Shown: one piece after another, positions 4,388-27,253 of the stretch
Layout: the number at the start of each line of letters is the position of its first letter
Position numbering within the stretch: position 1 is the stretch's first letter
Virus record (IMG/VR): IMGVR_UViG_3300021376_000037
Span: 1 to 64,000 of that record
DNA from: a virus
DNA: 64,000 bases
Strand: one strand, 5' to 3'
Notes under the pieces: model-generated
Told to the model about the DNA's origin: nothing
Seen by the model: only the letters and a program-made list of their open reading frames with translations
Databases searched by the model: none
Program-made: the position numbers and the translations under genes

Positions 4388-4428
4388 AGTAAAGGCGCTT
4401 TACAGCGCCCGGCCCCGGTTTTGTCAAG
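4388..4428. repeat. unit-boundary element 3
   Basis: AGTAAA-ggcgc-TTTACA-gcg-CCCGGCCCCGGTTTTGTCAAG after stop 4386. Confidence 0.8.
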
Positions 4429-4998: not shown

Positions 4999-5223
4999 AT
5001 GGAAAACACCTACAACGGTTGGGCAAACTACGAGACTTGGAACGTCGCGCTGTATATTCAGAATGAGGAACCGCTGTATAGGATTGCAACGCGGTGTGAT
5101 TCTTATTCCGACTTTCTTTTCAAGTCTCACCGCATCCGTGGCGTCACGACTCCTGATAATGTGCTGTGGCACTCTTCCATTCTTAATTGGGACGAACTCA
5201 ACGCTATGATCAGGGATCTCTGA
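4999..5223 (+). CDS. conserved phage protein (YNGWxNYETWNVAL family)
   Basis: TYNGWANYETWNVALYIQNEEPLY; GAAAGGG SD. Confidence 0.8.
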   Translation: MENTYNGWANYETWNVALYIQNEEPLYRIATRCDSYSDFLFKSHRIRGVTTPDNVLWHSSILNWDELNAMIRDL

Positions 5224-5303
5224 TGATTCATAAAAGCAACACAATCTTTTTCCTTCCTTCGCTGTATATTCCTGTTGGCATTATCATTTACCTCTGGAGA
5301 TAA
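5223..5303 (+). CDS. 26-aa hydrophobic micropeptide
   Basis: TGATG-coupled; MIHKSNTIFFLPSLYIPVGIIIYLWR. Confidence 0.5.
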   Translation: MIHKSNTIFFLPSLYIPVGIIIYLWR

Positions 5304-5308
5304 TAAAC

Positions 5309-5485
5309 ATGAATAATCCTTGCATCGACGGTCACAAGTCTCAGGCATACTGGAAGTATGACGCACGCGGCATCCCGCTTGCTAAGGTGTGCAAGCATTG
5401 TGTTGCGTTTAAGCTGTCAAAGTTTCGTCCAGAGGTTATCAATGATGCTAACTATTGGGCAGACGAGGTTATTGATAGCGATTAA
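5309..5485 (+). CDS. 58-aa phage protein (YDARGIPLxxVCxxC motif)
   Basis: below ORF-track cut-off; GGAG SD; MNNPCIDGHKSQAYWKYDARGIPLAKVCKHC... Confidence 0.7.
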   Translation: MNNPCIDGHKSQAYWKYDARGIPLAKVCKHCVAFKLSKFRPEVINDANYWADEVIDSD

Positions 5486-5487
5486 AA

Positions 5488-5524
5488 TGTAAGGAGTTTT
5501 TACTTGCCCCGGCCCGCGTTTTAG
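5488..5524. repeat. unit-boundary element 4
   Basis: TGTAAG-gagtt-TTTACT-tgc-CCCGGCCCGCGTTTTAG after stop 5485. Confidence 0.8.
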
Positions 5525-5577
5525 CGGGTACAAGGGGAAAAGCAAGGGGAAGTTTCCGTGTGTCACGCTGCGGTTGC

Positions 5578-5646
5578 GTCACCTGAATGTGACACCCGAA
5601 AACAGGTTGCTTGCAGGCAAGGGCAAGGTGTGAGAATATATGTCCC
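5578..5646 (+). promoter_or_regulatory. early promoter P7 (no ATG at +1)
   Basis: GTCAC5578-N6-GTGAC; TTGCAG5611-N17-GAATAT. Confidence 0.75.
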
Positions 5647-5677
5647 GTTGAAGCAAGCGGGGACGGCAAGCAGGACT

Positions 5678-5740
5678 GAAACCCAGCGGTGACAGGTAGA
5701 AAAAAGGTAGCTTGACGGTTCAGCGGTTTTCCTGTAGATT
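5678..5740 (+). promoter_or_regulatory. early promoter P8 (leadered)
   Basis: GAAAC5678-N6-GTGAC; TTGACG5712-N17-TAGATT; leader AACGAAAGGCAAA as in P2. Confidence 0.8.
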
Positions 5741-19993: not shown

Positions 19994-20528
19994 TATAAGA
20001 CCTGAAAAACTAGAGGTATATACAAATGCTTTTAATAAAGTTTTTCCTTCTTATTGTATCGATACCCCTAGACGGATTGCTGCATTTCTTGGACAAGTCG
20101 GCGTCGAAAGCGGAGAACTCAGATACGACAAAGAACTAGGCTCTAAATGGAACAAGAGAGATGTCGGTAATCGATTTGAACCTGTTGGTACTCTTTATGA
20201 AGGACGCAAGAATTTAGGTAATACTCAAGTTGGCGATGGTCCTAAATTTATTGGTCGCGGCATTCTTCAGTTGACAGGTAGAGCAAACTATACTAATATG
20301 TCTAAGAAATTAGGAGTTGATTTAGTAAACAATCCTGAATTAGCATGTGATCCAGAAATAAGTACTAAAATTGCTTGTGAATATTTTAAAGAACGTGGTT
20401 TATTAGATTTATCTGATAAATGGAATTTAGAAGAAATAACACGTAGAGTAAATGGTAATGCTAAACTTCATCATGATTTGCGTGTACAATACAGCGAAAG
20501 AGCATTAAAAACTTTAAATCCATTTTAG
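19953..20528 (+). CDS. GH19 glycoside hydrolase (endolysin)
   Basis: AAFLGQVGVESG, YEGRKNLGN, FIGRGILQLTGRANY, ITRRVNG. Confidence 0.92.
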   Translation: MNITKDQLKKIYPNIRPEKLEVYTNAFNKVFPSYCIDTPRRIAAFLGQVGVESGELRYDKELGSKWNKRDVGNRFEPVGTLYEGRKNLGNTQVGDGPKFIGRGILQLTGRANYTNMSKKLGVDLVNNPELACDPEISTKIACEYFKERGLLDLSDKWNLEEITRRVNGNAKLHHDLRVQYSERALKTLNPF

Positions 20529-20529
20529 T

Positions 20530-20730
20530 ATGAATAATTATAAATTTTCCTGTGATGAATGTGGATGGCATAATGCTCCTAATATGATGGCTGTTGCACA
20601 TATCGGTTTTAAGTGGTATTGTAGTAGGTGTTTAGATAAATTCTTAAAAGAAGAAAAACGTAAACAAAAAGAAAAGCAACAAAGATTAGCAGAACAACAA
20701 TTAAATATTAGTGGCAGTAAGCCTGTATAG
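20530..20730 (+). CDS. small Zn-finger protein
   Basis: CDEC...CSRC; 3' end overlaps tRNA-Thr. Confidence 0.55.
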   Translation: MNNYKFSCDECGWHNAPNMMAVAHIGFKWYCSRCLDKFLKEEKRKQKEKQQRLAEQQLNISGSKPV

Positions 20731-20792
20731 CACAGCGGTAGTGCAATAGTTTTGTAAACTATAGGTCGGGGGTTCAAATCCCTCTACAGGCT
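20721..20792 (+). tRNA. tRNA-Thr(TGT)
   Basis: acceptor GCCTGTA/TACAGGC; anticodon arm ATAGT-TTTGTAA-ACTAT; TTCAAAT T-loop. Confidence 0.92.
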
Positions 20793-20798
20793 CAAAAT

Positions 20799-20872
20799 GC
20801 GAATATAGCTCAGTTGGTTAGAGCAGACGCTTGATAAGCGTCAGGTCAGTGGTTCAAATCCACTTATTCGCA
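20799..20872 (+). tRNA. tRNA-Ile(GAT)
   Basis: GCGAATA/TATTCGC; GACGC-TTGATAA-GCGTC. Confidence 0.95.
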
Positions 20873-20876
20873 CTAT

Positions 20877-20960
20877 GCCCGTGTGGTGTAATGGTAGCCA
20901 CGGCAGATTCAAAATCTGCTGCCCCTTAAAGGCGTACTGGTTCAAGTCCGGTCACGGGTA
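20877..20960 (+). tRNA. tRNA-Leu(CAA)
   Basis: GCCCGTG/CACGGGT; GCAGA-TTCAAAA-TCTGC; long variable arm. Confidence 0.92.
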
Positions 20961-20963
20961 TTT

Positions 20964-21035
20964 GCAGGAATAGCTCAGTGGTAGAGCATCACGTTGCCAA
21001 CGTGACGGTCGTGGGTTCAAATCCCATTTCCTGCT
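20964..21035 (+). tRNA. tRNA-Gly(GCC)
   Basis: GCAGGAA/TTCCTGC; TCACG-TTGCCAA-CGTGA. Confidence 0.95.
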
Positions 21036-21352
21036 TGTTGATAGTAGGTAGTAGGCTTACAAGTAGCCATCTTTAATGAGTGAGACAAAATCCTTATAGC
21101 AGATATAATTCCGTTAACAGCGGGGAGCGTTGCGAAATATTGCCCGAAGAAAGCACAACGAAACCCGAAGTCAGTTGTGTAGACACATCGTTGGTAGGAA
21201 AGCTCCTATATATCATTAGTCTTGAAGGTTGGGTAATGGGCAGAAAGTCAGGAAACTGATTGGACCGTAATCAACGATAAGATAATACTGAAAATATTAT
21301 TCTGTTGGTTGCCACCATCTCTTTAGTGTAGTAACACGTCTACTATTAACAA
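21036..21352 (+). ncRNA. structured RNA containing a split mimic of the 23S rRNA uL11-binding domain (H43/H44)
   Basis: closing helix TGTTGATAGTAGG/TCTACTATTAACA; GTAGGCTTACAAGTAGCCATCTTTAATGA ~ 23S 1059-1088; GTGTAGTAACAC ~ 1091-1102; many internal hairpins; no ORF of 60 aa or more. Confidence 0.8.
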
Positions 21353-21367
21353 CTTGAAAGGAAATAT

Positions 21368-21667
21368 ATGGCTAAGAAAAAAGAAACATATTGGAATTAT
21401 AGATTATATGAAAAAGAATTTTGTAGTTCCGCTGGAGAAAAATGGACTGAATGTGGTATAATTGAAGTGTATTATGAAGGACAAAAGATTAAAGGTTATA
21501 CAGATAGTTTTATGTTCCCCTATGGTGAATCAGCTGCGGAAGCAAAAGAAGATTTCTTATTAATGAGTAAGGCTTTTGAAAAACCAGTTCTAACAATAAA
21601 AGATTTAGAACCTAAAAAAACAAAAGCTAAGAAAGTGAAAAAGAAAAATGAGAAAAGCAAGCGTTAA
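21368..21667 (+). CDS. conserved phage protein (WNYR...IEVYY family), copy 1
   Basis: WNYRL...GIIEVYY...PYGES...KAFEKPVL; GAAAGG SD. Confidence 0.75.
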   Translation: MAKKKETYWNYRLYEKEFCSSAGEKWTECGIIEVYYEGQKIKGYTDSFMFPYGESAAEAKEDFLLMSKAFEKPVLTIKDLEPKKTKAKKVKKKNEKSKR

Positions 21668-21956
21668 AGATTGGAATTATAGAGTATTTAAATCTGGTGA
21701 TTTTTTTGGTATAGTAGAAGTATATTATGATGTTAGCGGAAATCCTGTTGGCTTTAGTGATTATAATTATCCGTTTGGTTATACTGAGGGAGAATTAAAA
21801 TTAGATATATCCAGCATGCTAAAAGCTTGCAGATTACCTGTATTAACAAAAGAAGATTTTGAAAAAAAATCTGTACGTAAGAGTAAAATTGTTGTACCAT
21901 CAGTAAAGAATCCTCCACCTAAAGAGGTCATGGCTAAAGGAGATAATAATGTCTAA
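21648..21956 (+). CDS. conserved phage protein (WNYR...VEVYY family), copy 2
   Basis: WNYRV...GIVEVYY...PFGYT...KACRLPVL. Confidence 0.75.
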   Translation: MRKASVKDWNYRVFKSGDFFGIVEVYYDVSGNPVGFSDYNYPFGYTEGELKLDISSMLKACRLPVLTKEDFEKKSVRKSKIVVPSVKNPPPKEVMAKGDNNV

Positions 21957-22204: not shown

Positions 22205-22831
22205 ATGATCTTCGGTAAAACACTCAACGACGATAAGGATAAGCAGAAGGAAGCTGCGCCACAACGTAAGTCTAGAGAAAAAGACGAAGATATTCTTGAG
22301 GTAGAACATGAAGATGGACGTATTTATTTTTATACTGAAGTTAACAAAGGTTCTATTTTAGATCTCAATAAGGCTATTCGTGCAAGCGAAGCAGATATGC
22401 TTCATACTGCTAATGTTTTAGATATTGCTCCACCGCATATTAAATTGCATATTAATAGTCCCGGTGGCAGTTTATTTGACGGTCTTGCAGCAGTTGATTA
22501 TGTACGCAAGTGTAAAGTACCTGTTCATTCTATTATTGAAGGTATGGCAGCGTCTGCTGCTACACTTATTTCTGTAATGGCCCATAAACGTTCCATCAAT
22601 AAACATTCTTATATGCTTATTCATCAACTTTCTTCTGGATTAGTAGGAAAGTATGAAGAGTTAGTGGATGATATGGAAAACAATAAAACTTTAATGAAAG
22701 CCATTAAGCAAATTTATCTGGAACGTACAAAAATCCCAGAAAACCTGTTGAAAGATATTCTTAAAAAAGATATCTATTTTGATGCAAAGCAGTGTTTGAA
22801 ATACGGTTTAGTAGACCATATTATTGAATAA
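22205..22831 (+). CDS. clpP: ClpP-like protease proteolytic subunit
   Basis: IKLHINSPGGS, GMAASAA (Ser), MLIHQ (His), KDIYFDAKQCLKYGLVD. Confidence 0.88.
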   Translation: MIFGKTLNDDKDKQKEAAPQRKSREKDEDILEVEHEDGRIYFYTEVNKGSILDLNKAIRASEADMLHTANVLDIAPPHIKLHINSPGGSLFDGLAAVDYVRKCKVPVHSIIEGMAASAATLISVMAHKRSINKHSYMLIHQLSSGLVGKYEELVDDMENNKTLMKAIKQIYLERTKIPENLLKDILKKDIYFDAKQCLKYGLVDHIIE

Positions 22832-23196: not shown

Positions 23197-23499
23197 GTGC
23201 TTCCTATAATAATAATTATAGTGGTTGGATTAATAAATAGTTATGCTTCATTAAAGTCATTTAATGGTGGGAGTTTTTTGTGGCCTTTATTAACTGGACA
23301 ATTATCAGTAATAACATGGACATACATAACAAAACAATCTTTTTCTCCTTGGATGGCTGCTATACTATTTGATGGTTTATATTGTATTAGTTGGTATACT
23401 GGTGCTGTGTTACAGGGACAAAAAGTTAATTTATTTCATATAATAGGTGCGCTTTTCGTAATCTGCGGTATAATTATAACAAGTGTAGGTAGTAAATAG
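23197..23499 (+). CDS. small 4-TM membrane protein (SMR/DMT-like)
   Basis: 100 aa; C-terminal HIIGALFVICGIII resembles 13275 ORF. Confidence 0.65.
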   Translation: MLPIIIIIVVGLINSYASLKSFNGGSFLWPLLTGQLSVITWTYITKQSFSPWMAAILFDGLYCISWYTGAVLQGQKVNLFHIIGALFVICGIIITSVGSK

Positions 23500-23569
23500 G
23501 GCGATTAGTTAAACGGGATAACAACGGCTTTGCAAGCCGTGATTGACAGTTCGATTCTGTCATCGTCCA
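23499..23569 (+). tRNA. tRNA-Ala(TGC)
   Basis: GGGCGAT/ATCGTCC with G3:U70 Ala identity pair; ACGGC-TTTGCAA-GCCGT. Confidence 0.88.
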
Positions 23570-23570
23570 T

Positions 23571-23762
23571 ATGAAAAAAAATAACAATAGCAGCACAGTT
23601 TGGTTAAGAATAATGGTAATAATAAACACACTTGCTGTTGCTAGTTATATTTTTTATGGTGAATGGGAAAAGAAACAACCACGGATGGTAAAACATGTTT
23701 GCCAAACCGTGGCTGCTGATCAAGAAAAAGGTTTGATCGCCCTTACCTGCTTAGAAGATTAA
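23571..23762 (+). CDS. small single-TM protein
   Basis: 63 aa with N-terminal TM. Confidence 0.5.
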   Translation: MKKNNNSSTVWLRIMVIINTLAVASYIFYGEWEKKQPRMVKHVCQTVAADQEKGLIALTCLED

Positions 23763-24577
23763 GCGCTTTCTAGTTGCCACAATCCCTCTGCAAGTGCCAA
23801 TAATGTCTTAGCATTTTCTAAGCTAACACATATTGATATATGTTCATAAGCTATTGTACGTTTGCTTAATAAACCAATTACTTTACCTTTGTAAAAGATA
23901 CCTGAACCGCTATGACCGGGAGCAGAAGGAAGAGTAACTATTTCTTCGTTATTTTCATCTAATCCCATATATCTACCATCAGTTACGATGAAGATGTTTT
24001 TTGGATGATAGCCAAGAGCAGCACCAGATATTAACACACTTGCTCCAACTGGTGGTGTATTGTCAGCTAATTCTGCTGCTTCTCCTGCTATGCAAGCACT
24101 TTTAATAACTGACAAATCTTTTTTTCCATCGCCAGCCATAGGATATGCTGCACATTTTTCACCATCTAATCTTTCAACCATCATTTCTATTGTATCTATT
24201 TTGAAGAAATAAAAACCACTTTCATCAAATTCTAATGTTACCTTTTCTGGATGTGTTACGTGGGCAACACTTAATATCAAACTTTCTTTTTTGTTGTAGT
24301 TATTTCTGACAACCACGCCAGAACCTGTCCAACTTTTGCTTTCGCTTTTTTCTTTTGTTTCTGGTGGAACTGAAGCATTAACACCTAATAAACTAGCTAA
24401 ATTGGTTCTATGACCAGAGATTTTAGTATATATTTTAACGGTGCTGCTCATTGCTTCACGGGCATCATAACCTTCTTCTTTAAACATTCCGCAACGTTTA
24501 AAACAACCGCTCATCATTACTAACATCATTGTTGCTGCTATTAATTTATGTTTAATCCATGTATTATTTCCTTTCAT
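23759..24577 (-). CDS. trypsin-like serine protease, predicted lipoprotein
   Basis: lipobox MSGC; GSGVVV, SVAHV (His), DLSVI (Asp), PGHSGSG (Ser); GGAGG SD. Confidence 0.85.
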   Translation of the reverse strand: MKGNNTWIKHKLIAATMMLVMMSGCFKRCGMFKEEGYDAREAMSSTVKIYTKISGHRTNLASLLGVNASVPPETKEKSESKSWTGSGVVVRNNYNKKESLILSVAHVTHPEKVTLEFDESGFYFFKIDTIEMMVERLDGEKCAAYPMAGDGKKDLSVIKSACIAGEAAELADNTPPVGASVLISGAALGYHPKNIFIVTDGRYMGLDENNEEIVTLPSAPGHSGSGIFYKGKVIGLLSKRTIAYEHISICVSLENAKTLLALAEGLWQLESA

Positions 24578-24726: not shown

Positions 24727-24813
24727 GGAGAGTTGGCCGAGTGGTCGAAGGCACCTCACTGCTAACGAGGCATACTTTAAAAGGTATCGAAAGTTCGAAT
24801 CTTTCACTCTCCG
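24727..24813 (+). tRNA. tRNA-Ser(GCT)
   Basis: GGAGAGT/ACTCTCC; CCTCA-CTGCTAA-CGAGG; long variable arm; G discriminator. Confidence 0.92.
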
Positions 24814-24850
24814 CTGCTTTTTTGATTACTAGTTATTTTAGGAGGAATAT

Positions 24851-25312: not shown

Positions 25313-25894
25313 ATGCAAATCACCACTATAAACAATAACTCTAATGATAATCGTAACATCGTTGATCGGTATAAGCATGATCGTTTGGTTAAATGGACTA
25401 CGGAAATGATAAAGACTGATCTTCAACAAAAGTCTTTTCCATTTGCAGTTATGATGGAAAACTTTGTTGGAGATTTTAATCTTTCTTCTGTTCTACGTTC
25501 TTGTAATGCCATGAATGGTCGTGAAATGTTCTATTTGGGTCGTAAACAATATGACCGTCGTGGAACTGTTGGAACACATCACTACACTGATTTGATTAAC
25601 GTAAAGACCCGTGAGGAGCTTTTAAAGCTAAAGGAACGATATACTTTCGTTGCACTTGAAAATAGCGTACCGCAAGCAGAATCTATTTATGATTTTATGT
25701 GGCCCGAAAATCCACTTATTATTATTGGTGAAGAGGGAGTAGGGATTACACCAGAAACTCTTGAACTCTGTGACCGTTATGTATTCATTAATCAATACGG
25801 CTCAGTGCGCTCAATGAATGCAGCAGTAGCGGGAAGTATTGCAATGAATGACTTTGTAATGAAATATGTAAAAAATAAAGACAAGATGCGCTAG
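25313..25894 (+). CDS. SpoU/TrmH-family RNA 2'-O-methyltransferase
   Basis: NLSSVLRSCNA, IIGEEGVGI, GSVRSMNAAVAGSIAM SPOUT motifs. Confidence 0.9.
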   Translation: MQITTINNNSNDNRNIVDRYKHDRLVKWTTEMIKTDLQQKSFPFAVMMENFVGDFNLSSVLRSCNAMNGREMFYLGRKQYDRRGTVGTHHYTDLINVKTREELLKLKERYTFVALENSVPQAESIYDFMWPENPLIIIGEEGVGITPETLELCDRYVFINQYGSVRSMNAAVAGSIAMNDFVMKYVKNKDKMR

Positions 25895-25939
25895 AATACT
25901 ATTTATATCGTGCCGATTTATTGCACGAAGGAATACATA

Positions 25940-27253
25940 ATGTCAAAAAAATACTATGTTCTAGATACAAACGTGTATCTAAGTGACTGTGACGCAATCT
26001 TTGCTTATAAGAATCATAACGTAGCAATCCCTTTAAAAGTATTAGAAGAAGTAGATAAGCACAAGAAACGTCAAGATGGTGTTGGAGCTAACGCAAGACA
26101 ATTTATAAGAACCCTAGATGCCCTTAGAGAAAAAGGAAGTTTAGATGACGGGGCAAAGCTAGGTAAGGGCAAAGGAATTGCCTCAGTTATTCCTTGCGAT
26201 TTGTCACTACTTCCTACTGGATTTGAAAAAGATAATGCCGACAACCAAATTATTGCTGCTGCCCTAACTCTTATTCGTGAAATAGGAGATAATAAAAATG
26301 TATTCTTAGTGTCTCAAGATATCAACATGAGAGTCAAGTGTGACTCCCTTGGTATCAATACAGAAGATTATATTCCTAATCAAATAGTAGAACGTGCAGA
26401 AGAAGTATTTACAGGATTTACACAATATCTTGTTGATGATGCTTTAATTGATCGTTTCTATGCTGGCGAAAAGATCATGTTTGAAGAAAAAGATATTAAG
26501 TTATGTCCAAATCAATTTGTAATGCTTGTATCCAATGCAAATGATAAAAAGACAGCACTAGCTCGTTTCCGTGCTTATAATAAGCCAATTACAAAAGTTC
26601 GGGAATATAAAGACGGTGTTTGGGGTATCTATGCAAAGAATAAAGAACAACAATTTGCATTAGAATTACTTATGGACCCGGAAGTTAAAATTGTTTCTAT
26701 TATTGGTCGTGCTGGTGGTGGTAAAACACTCAATGCATTGGCGGCTGGCTTACAACAAATTCTAGATGACAAGGTTTATAAAAAGCTTATTGTATCCCGC
26801 CCCGTCCAGCCAATGGGTAAAGATATCGGTTATTTGCCGGGAACATTAGAAGAAAAAATGTCTCCTTGGCTAGCGCCTGTACAAGACAATTTAGAGTTTC
26901 TTATGGGTGATGATAAAGCACATTTACAAATGTTAATGGAAGCTGGAACAATTGAAATGGAAGCTTTAACATATATCCGTGGTCGTTCTATTGCTAATGC
27001 TTTTATCATCATCGATGAATCGCAAAATTTAACTTCTCACGAATTAAAGACTATAATTACTCGGGTAGGCGAAGGAACAAAAATAGTATTAACCGGAGAT
27101 ATTGAACAAATAGATAATGCATATGTAGATGCTACAACAAACGGTCTTACTTATGCTGTAGAAAAGTTAAAAGATTACGAAATTTCTGGTCACATTACAT
27201 TAAAGAAAGGTGAGCGTTCCGCTGTAGCTACTCTAGCCGCTCAAGTATTATAA
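25940..27253 (+). CDS. phoH: PIN-PhoH protein (PhoH2/YlaK-like)
   Basis: VLDTNV PIN domain; GRAGGGKT Walker A; IRGRS, IIDESQN, TRVG. Confidence 0.93.
   Translation: MSKKYYVLDTNVYLSDCDAIFAYKNHNVAIPLKVLEEVDKHKKRQDGVGANARQFIRTLDALREKGSLDDGAKLGKGKGIASVIPCDLSLLPTGFEKDNADNQIIAAALTLIREIGDNKNVFLVSQDINMRVKCDSLGINTEDYIPNQIVERAEEVFTGFTQYLVDDALIDRFYAGEKIMFEEKDIKLCPNQFVMLVSNANDKKTALARFRAYNKPITKVREYKDGVWGIYAKNKEQQFALELLMDPEVKIVSIIGRAGGGKTLNALAAGLQQILDDKVYKKLIVSRPVQPMGKDIGYLPGTLEEKMSPWLAPVQDNLEFLMGDDKAHLQMLMEAGTIEMEALTYIRGRSIANAFIIIDESQNLTSHELKTIITRVGEGTKIVLTGDIEQIDNAYVDATTNGLTYAVEKLKDYEISGHITLKKGERSAVATLAAQVL

Follow-up and report, generated by a model that had tools for sequence, protein, structure and literature searches.

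A free-standing phage RNA that copies the GTPase-associated centre of 23S ribosomal RNA and belongs to a large, apparently undescribed family

Imitation of one nucleic acid by another is a recurrent principle in the biology of bacteria and viruses. It is found in 6S RNA, which resembles open promoter DNA, in the bacterial Y RNAs and the viral tRNA-like structures, which resemble transfer RNA (tRNA), and in the leaders of ribosomal-protein operons, such as the L10 leader, which imitates the L10(L12)4 binding site of ribosomal RNA (rRNA). We know of no described example of a stand-alone RNA that imitates a functional centre of rRNA. Here we describe an RNA element of an uncultured phage, which has the secondary structure and the tertiary contacts, including G1087-C1102, of the GTPase-associated centre (GAC) of bacterial 23S rRNA (E. 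coli nucleotides 1051-1108). The element lies in the first 64 kb, hereafter the window, of the 76,997-base IMG/VR virus record IMGVR_UViG_3300021376_000037, which derives from lake-water metagenomes and for which a completeness of 42% is estimated. In the ribosome the GAC binds protein uL11 and is the site at which the translation GTPases are met, and its isolated 58-60-nt fragment binds uL11 and thiostrepton. The GAC and uL11 form one of the best-studied RNA-protein modules, and a natural stand-alone copy of it across large phages would come as a surprise.

Compared with the 23S GAC, the phage element is free-standing, with a plain closing helix in place of the continuation into helices 42, 41 and 45 (H42, H41 and H45), and is flanked by a tRNA gene and an open reading frame (ORF), not embedded as a contiguous domain in a full 23S rRNA. 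It carries an insert of 0-340 nucleotides (nt), 244 nt in the window, between U1090 and G1091, with a UUU(G/A) linker on the return; position 1101 is A and not U, ACAC rather than UCAC follows H44, and the loop tips are more variable. The ribosomal-protein leaders likewise imitate a protein site of rRNA off the ribosome, but they are partial mimics, which act in cis as 5' untranslated regions of cellular ribosomal-protein genes, whereas the phage element copies a full tertiary fold within phage tRNA arrays and has no ribosomal-protein gene nearby. In the window the gene downstream is an ORF of 99 amino acids (aa), and neither a Ribosomal_L11 domain nor a uL11 gene was found anywhere in the 77-kb record. 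GOLLD and ROOL are also phage-borne, structured, hundreds of nt long, located beside tRNA genes and of unknown function. The element has no Rfam match to either of them, and its core can be recognised as a copy of a functional centre of the ribosome, such as GOLLD and ROOL are not known to contain. From 6S RNA, the Y RNAs and the tRNA-like structures it differs in the object imitated and in the likely ligand.

The GAC fold and its covariation

The element comprises the following parts, with rRNA positions in E. coli numbering.

21036-21351, + strand: whole GAC-mimic RNA, about 316 nt (full-length covariance-model match 21037-21351; z-score of the minimum free energy fold -2.5)
21036-21048, + strand: 5' strand of the closing helix P1, equivalent to the top of H42, with G1055/G1056 at 21047/21048
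21049-21081, + strand: H43-like hairpin and junction, equivalent to 1057-1090 (from the sequence, the published GAC mapping and the covariance-model alignment), with the A1058-U pair, G1059-C1079, U1060, A1061, the GGC/GCC stem, the loop UUACAAGUA with A1067 at 21059, the UUUAAUGA turn, and G1087, A1088, G1089 and U1090
21082-21325, + strand: inserted accessory domain, 244 nt, multi-helix; its base helix, GAGA 21082-21085 with TCTC 21318-21321, joins both GAC halves
21322-21325, + strand: conserved UUUA linker at the 3' end of the insert
21326-21337, + strand: H44-like hairpin, equivalent to 1091-1102 (from the sequence, the covariance-model alignment and the family table), with G1091-C1100, U1092-A1099, G1093, the loop UAGU with A1095 at 21330, A1098, A1101, and C1102 pairing with G1087
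21339-21351, + strand: 3' strand of P1

Positions were assigned by comparison with the 60-nt GAC RNA published for E. coli (PMC1802607) and with a real 23S rRNA in a contig of our sample (L099). Identity to the E. coli GAC extends to 27 of the 34 positions 1055-1088 and to 8 of the 14 positions 1091-1104. The stretch 21051-21079 reads GTAGGCTTACAAGTAGCCATCTTTAATGA, a 29-mer that is unique in the window and does not turn up in any of 100 shuffles, and 21326-21337 reads GTGTAGTAACAC, the GAC halves being about 245 nt apart. Unchanged from E. coli are U1060 (21052), A1067 (21059), G1071 (21063), G1087 (21078) and A1088 (21079) in the first half, and G1091 (21326), A1095 (21330), C1100 (21335) and C1102 (21337) in the second. 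Position 1061 is A (21053), and the substitution U1061A stabilises the tertiary fold of the isolated GAC RNA (PMC1802607). The base triple 1072/1092/1099 is U/U-A (21064, 21327, 21334) in place of C/C-G. The closing helix P1 has 13 bp (21036-21048 with 21339-21351), of which two are G-U; it ties both ends together in the H42 register, as in the rest of the family, and is retained in the unconstrained minimum free energy fold (z -2.5). An initial annotation of this DNA, made from the letters alone, had listed the 13-bp helix, the two halves, the key positions, A1061, the U:U-A triple and the GAGA/TCTC helix, and all these sequence statements proved accurate. Its split of about 245 nt also stands, with one refinement of the boundaries: the GU that follows A1088 corresponds to rRNA 1089-1090, so that the insert begins after U1090.

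A chance resemblance can be excluded. The covariance model R1, built from an alignment (A1) of 26 short-insert members, all of them other phage copies, matches the window from end to end (21037-21351, model positions 1-175) with 59.4 bits and E 2.7e-17, and this is its sole match in the 77-kb record. Likewise, the earlier proposal that the element is a non-coding RNA and not a fragment of rRNA is upheld, since neither the window nor the whole record contains a match to large-subunit rRNA (RF02541). The 316-nt stretch that follows tRNA-Gly is also without a credible ORF.

The initial annotation had asked for covariation among homologues, and this was obtained for all helices and for the tertiary pairs, which change in concert. 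The structure scored on A1 was the GAC secondary structure as written down beforehand, together with the base of the insert helix. Pairing is found in 91.5% of the cells of this alignment as against 66.4% in column shuffles, and the covariation score is 0.664 as against 0.194, none of 500 shuffles being as high; when the 3' partners are slid by 1-3 columns, the pairing signal collapses. Double-sided changes affect all nine P1 pairs and all five pairs at the base of the insert, and within the clade of the window P1 shows compensatory changes among the relatives. The pair 1058:1080 is G:C in 21 cases, U:A in 12, A:U in 9 and C:G in 2. For the triple 1072:1092-1099, the non-redundant members comprise 35 with C:C-G, 9 with U:U-A, as in the window, and one exception.

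A first table of conservation was circular at those positions that had been fixed by the pattern used for fishing, and each half was therefore redone on sequences fished by the other: the 5' half on 29 members from bacterial assemblies, retrieved with the 3'-half pattern alone, and the 3' half on sequences retrieved with the 5' half. In the former set 1082:1086 is U:A in 14, C:G in 13 and A:U in 2 members, and 1057:1081, 1064:1074 and 1062:1076 also covary. The nucleotides U1060, G1063, U1065, U1066, G1071, A1077 and A1084 are invariant here, and A1088, G1087, G1059, A1085 and U1083 nearly so. The loop tips are more variable, A1067 being replaced by G in 4 and A1070 by G in 6 of the 29, and A1095 by another base (C, G or U) in about 10 of 97 members, while 1096 and 1097 vary freely; overall, about 10-14% of the members ascertained independently have a substitution at the A1067 and A1095 tips. 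At position 1101 the family has A in place of U. The covariation demonstrates, at the level of sequence, that the family keeps the GAC fold, including the tertiary contacts U1060-A1088, 1082:1086 and 1071/1072:H44, and the rebuilding of this fold with its base triple, as first proposed for the window alone, holds for the family.

The window copy departs from this consensus in one region. Its turn has one nucleotide fewer in the 1080-1083 run (C-UUUAAU) and a U at 1086, and hence is not the canonical 1080-1086 turn (N-UUUAAA) with a Watson-Crick 1082:1086 pair. This variant, together with an irregular partner of 1057, defines a subfamily of about 20 loci in our sample. Two of the nearest relatives of the window element (L252:1260-1574 and L253:833-1148) have C at both 1065 and 1066, in the loop CCAGAAGUA; in the independently ascertained set these positions are invariant U, and the change sits in the T-loop-like turn of H43.

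A large family with variable inserts

The element had been taken for a singular object, and this view had to be given up: the phage family to which it belongs is very large, and this member has an unusually long insert that is confined to its clade. A pattern in IUPAC code for the H43 half retrieved at least 118 IMG/VR contigs, in all but two of which the half is followed by AGAGU and then by unrelated sequence, and not by the rRNA continuation; the two exceptions are L099, which is a real 23S rRNA, and L081, a mini form without insert. The H44 half (GYGUARYARC) follows 27-343 nt downstream of H43, and beyond it lies a strand that pairs upstream of H43 in the H42 register. With the covariance model R1, 97-102 elements were found in 100 viral loci, and essentially every viral locus fetched contains a full-length element of 100-405 nt.

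Besides the IMG/VR contigs, at least 118 in number, the family is present in about 29 bacterial assemblies and in roughly 25 large phages in culture. A blastn search of cultured phages with the 317-nt window element gave no match, and the cultured carriers were reached with a consensus-like 81-nt query from another locus (L009). They include the Pseudomonas phages pf16, Astolliot, Milchi and UNO-G1W1, Aeromonas phage 4_4572, the Xanthomonas phages XacN1, XbC2 and XaC1, Serratia phage BF, Cronobacter phage GAP32, Pectobacterium phage CBB, several Erwinia and Yersinia jumbo phages and one Vibrio phage. The bacterial assemblies are mostly metagenome bins in which the element lies on tRNA-rich contigs, together with isolates such as Flintibacter muris DSM 110149. 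In the latter (L290), as well as in Clostridiaceae bacterium strain 9 (L261) and bacterium D16-76 (L294), full-length members score 93-117 bits, and these members in the genomes of cultured gut Clostridia presumably sit in prophages. The host range of the family thus reaches from Pseudomonadota to Clostridia.

Two loci illustrate the range of arrangements. A 174-kb viral contig (L031) carries tandem elements (5121-5366 and 5438-5712), of which one belongs to the 'ATC-TTTAAT' subfamily of the window and the other to the standard type. In L081 a mini mimic of only 73 nt (1588-1660; 51.9 bits) is devoid of an insert and has a tRNA gene 3 nt downstream and array tRNAs upstream; this indicates that the GAC core alone can be the entire RNA.

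At the gathering thresholds of Rfam 15 the window contains tRNAs only, with no GOLLD, ROOL or leader family, and at E<=10 there are two further matches at chance level, namely PGK with 20.6 bits, where 50.8 are needed, and a plastid UTR on the minus strand of a tRNA. The initial annotation had expected partial matches to large-subunit rRNA and no full-length family; the latter expectation was borne out, whereas even partial large-subunit matches are absent at E<=10. Twenty related loci gave only tRNAs and one true 23S rRNA in the same database. Full-text literature searches, among them one for the core sequence, found no description of the family within a coverage that leaves out most subscription journals. 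Accordingly, this appears to be a large and undescribed phage RNA family; in the initial annotation, too, the element had not been recognised as a described one.

The sequence AGAGU at the end of the H43 half, that is GU at 1089-1090, is ordinary rRNA sequence in many phyla, which places the insertion point after U1090, the chain returning via UUU(G/A) before G1091. As a probe for mimics in bacterial genomes, the pattern AGCCATCNTTTAAAGAGT (ending in AAAGAGU) was discarded, for all 120 matches listed were real 23S rRNA or chance. The window has the junction of the family, GU-GAGA...TCTC-TTTA-GTG (21080-21085 and 21318-21328). Its 244-nt insert is among the longer ones, lengths in the family running from 0 to about 340 nt. 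Different subfamilies have inserts that are not related to one another, and an insert may be absent altogether; the helix at the insert base covaries family-wide. Homologues of the window insert occur only in L079, L252 and L253 (72-75% identity; 78-79% over the whole element) and partly in L247, all of which come from a single syntenic clade of lake phages and have the flanking genes in common, and the pattern GAAAGCNNAACGAAACCCGA from the insert retrieved only L079 and two chance matches.

A model of the insert was built by hand and checked pair by pair, with modest support given that only four lineages are available. It comprises the GAGA/UCUC base helix, an outer AU-rich helix, an invariant hairpin UCCGUU-AAC-AGCGGG, a long-range GAGC/GCUC helix, a 7-bp hairpin with two compensatory pairs, a GUCAG hairpin and a long terminal hairpin, which is absent in L247. 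It replaced a prediction by RNAalifold on five clade members, in which the base of the insert was mispaired. A 59-codon ORF within the insert is ruled out by indels of 1-2 nt among the homologues. The insert shows no similarity to DNA of rRNA operons above shuffled controls, and a regular expression for a sarcin-ricin-like motif found none in this insert or in 61 others. Within the window clade, identity amounts to 87-96% in the GAC core, 38-75% in the insert, 57-74% with compensation in P1 and 73-84% in the flanking genes. Since the core is better conserved than both the insert and the neighbouring genes, the functional part is presumably the rRNA copy.

A 3'-terminal motif of the type ...AAGUR-N-CACCCCG-NRAA-YGGUAAGG... 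was observed in at least 13 of 61 inserts (L003, L005, L009, L030, L040, L047, L059, L070, L083, L092, L095, L107 and others). It constitutes a second conserved module of one large subfamily and is absent from the window insert.

Genomic context

The gene content of the record (baseplate wedge, glycosyltransferases, ClpP, PIN-PhoH) is that of a large tailed phage. Its PhoH has a best match in cultured phages below 40% identity, and the record has no close cultured relative. The neighbourhood of the element is composed as follows.

20721-21035, + strand: tRNA array Thr-Ile-Leu-Gly, four genes (ARAGORN, Rfam)
20964-21035, + strand: tRNA-Gly(GCC), final gene of the array (ARAGORN; Rfam tRNA 74.5 bits)
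21368-21667, + strand: 99-aa ORF with a match to phrog_21321 (function unknown) and an N-terminal W-N-Y-R motif
21648-21956, + strand: 102-aa ORF with an N-terminal W-N-Y-R motif, adjoining the 99-aa ORF
22205-22831, + strand: ClpP-like protease, among tRNA genes
23499-23569: tRNA-Ala
23759-24577, - strand: trypsin-like peptidase, among tRNA genes
24727-24814: tRNA-Ser
25313-25894, + strand: SpoU/SPOUT methyltransferase, 193 aa, 4 kb downstream of the mimic
25910-27253, + strand: PIN-PhoH fusion protein, among tRNA genes

As first noted, the element begins at the base directly after tRNA-Gly (21036, the tRNA ending at 21035) and on the strand of the array; the stretch after the tRNA ends 16 nt upstream of the ATG of the 99-aa ORF. 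A scan for promoters and terminators around the element gave nothing above shuffles. Together with the 102-aa ORF, the 99-aa ORF is syntenic 3' of the mimic in L079, L247, L250, L252 and L253. Across the family, a tRNA lies within 500 nt in 61 of 93 non-redundant viral elements; in 71 of the 72 loci with tRNAs all of these are on the strand of the element, and in 25 loci, the window included, a tRNA ends within 40 nt of H43. No protein gene was found to accompany the RNA throughout the family. L079, the closest relative, lacks the four-tRNA array, and a lysozyme/chitinase-like gene ends 6 nt upstream of its mimic (4392-4398), while at the corresponding site of the window (20528-21036) a 66-aa ORF and the array are inserted. 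This comparison indicates that tRNA arrays are gained or lost beside a fixed mimic locus, and the example of L079 makes the link with tRNAs frequent but not obligatory.

The SpoU methyltransferase was considered as a methylase of A1067 of the Tsr/NshR type and rejected, for it has no match to a thiostrepton-resistance methylase at E<=0.001. Its top solved relatives are the TrmH tRNA Gm18 2'-O-methyltransferases (1zjr, 1v2x, 7edc), and its gene recurs in the clade of the window and in two other loci only. These relatives and the restricted recurrence indicate that it is probably a tRNA-modifying enzyme and not a partner of the mimic.

Functional interpretations

The explanation that we favour, and for which we see about as much chance of being right as of being wrong, is that the element is a trans-acting copy of the GAC that binds host uL11 off the ribosome. 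The mimic RNA would be made within the transcript of the tRNA array, and, given that the discriminator base of tRNA-Gly abuts the element, 3' processing of this tRNA would generate its 5' end, the RNA being probably protected by the 13-bp closing helix. Both ends would fold as a GAC copy (top of H42, H43 and H44), with the 244-nt domain projecting between U1090 and G1091, and host uL11 would be bound via its C-terminal domain, as it is by the isolated 58-nt rRNA fragment. If the RNA were as abundant as a tRNA, it could capture free or exchangeable uL11 and so weaken the uL11-dependent functions of the ribosome, above all the activation of RelA and the stringent response. Expression, processing, uL11 binding and all that would follow from binding are inferred.

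The nucleotides contacted by the C-terminal domain of uL11 have been mapped to 1058-1060, 1062-1065 and 1075-1083 (PMC1802607), and in the independently ascertained set these are fixed or covarying. In conjunction with the variability of the tips that face the translation factors, thiostrepton and Tre23, this would rank uL11 binding above both the docking of factors and a role as decoy for toxins or antibiotics. The ranking is nonetheless a tentative one, because the same nucleotides also build the fold, from which the conservation of the contacts follows in any case, such that it discriminates poorly between ligands. This is one of several considerations that weigh against the capture of uL11. 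Free uL11 is a small pool, and a simple sponge would account neither for the size of the inserts nor for the conservation of the UUU(G/A) linker. Among public runs, no RNA run contained the window sequence, and four DNA runs yielded only identical contigs and relatives sharing 21041-21125. Finally, the deviant turn of the window subfamily lies within the stretch contacted by uL11, which makes binding less certain for the window copy than for the consensus.

An alternative, which we regard as unlikely, is that the element serves as a decoy or competitive inhibitor, absorbing an attack on the ribosomal GAC and so sparing ribosomes for the phage; the attacker might be a host defence or a competitor's toxin that modifies or cleaves H43/H44, for instance an ADP-ribosyltransferase, or a thiopeptide antibiotic. 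There is a parallel in the phage tRNA arrays themselves, which are believed to make good the loss of tRNAs to host nucleases, and the mimic is located in these arrays, that is in the translation-rescue part of large phage genomes; in most members, moreover, the complete tertiary fold with its 1067/1095 cleft is kept. Toxins directed at the GAC do exist, as exemplified by Tre23, which ADP-ribosylates H44 around 1095-1098 and blocks the GTPase of EF-G (PMC8661411). Yet the tips recognised by such agents (A1067, A1095 and 1096-1097) are the least conserved positions of the core, no GAC-directed toxin of phage defence is known, and a host span from Pseudomonadota to Clostridia would demand a very widespread attacker. 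Besides, a substrate decoy stops an enzyme poorly, unless present in large excess or bound in a dead-end complex. The variation of the factor-facing tips also speaks against a docking platform off the ribosome, which, with or without uL11, would sequester or redirect EF-G, the EF-Tu ternary complex, IF2, RF3, RelA or the tRNA elbow, and which we consider very unlikely. Such a platform would be in keeping with the genetic linkage to tRNAs and with the contacts that the 1067 and 1095 loops make on the ribosome with domain V of EF-G and with the elbow of the A/T-state tRNA. However, the binding of factors to an isolated GAC without the sarcin-ricin loop and the stalk is weak, the window insert offers neither a sarcin-ricin-like motif nor rRNA similarity, and H42 below the junction, the site of the L10 stalk, gives way to a plain helix whose sequence varies.

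The probability of an action in cis, be it as a module for the processing or stability of the transcript of the tRNA operon or as a uL11-sensing leader of the ORF at 21368, is in our view slighter still. It is known that mRNA leaders can regulate by imitating rRNA, neither a terminator nor a promoter beyond chance separates the element from the downstream ORF, and this 99-aa ORF is syntenic in the clade; against it, the neighbours in the family are tRNAs or unrelated genes with no conserved gene downstream, some members (L081) are flanked by tRNAs on both sides, and the structure is closed off by P1 at a distance from the ribosome-binding site. That the element is a functionless relic of captured host rRNA, as the 91% identity of 34 nt of its 5' half to a real 23S rRNA could intimate, is scarcely credible. 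It is contradicted by the compensatory changes that all helices and the tertiary pairs show, by the conservation of the insertion point and of the UUU(G/A) linker, by a core that is more conserved than the neighbouring genes, and by hundreds of independent carriers. If Pseudomonas 23S rRNA is, as we assume, of the E. coli type at 1058:1080 (U:A) and at U1061, a recent capture is also at variance with Pseudomonas phage pf16 (L057), which has G:C at 1058:1080 and A1061. For the E. coli GAC, U:A at 1058:1080 and U1061 are documented (PMC1802607).

Extending the capture of uL11 to the family as a whole, a free-standing GAC copy at tRNA-like levels in large phages of many phyla might capture uL11 or another GAC ligand, either imposing a 'relaxed' state without the RelA response or shielding ribosomes from GAC-directed attack, a generalisation that we advance tentatively and hold somewhat more likely to fail than to stand. 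Because the ligands, affinities, antibiotics and structures of the 58-nt fragment are known, the idea can be tested at once, and the full-length members L290, L261 and L294 may provide experimental systems beyond Pseudomonadota. The hundreds of natural variants of the GAC fold, with their tolerated insertion site, would also be useful for work on RNA structure and for engineering. If the interpretation is correct, this would be the first trans-acting decoy of an rRNA domain, with the variable inserts as lineage-specific add-on modules, and would add a new level at which phages govern translation in their hosts. Some of the non-tRNA content of phage tRNA arrays, which is so far unexplained, would thereby acquire a definite function, and the RNA could reveal a new viral route by which the stringent response is manipulated or ribosome-directed toxins are resisted.

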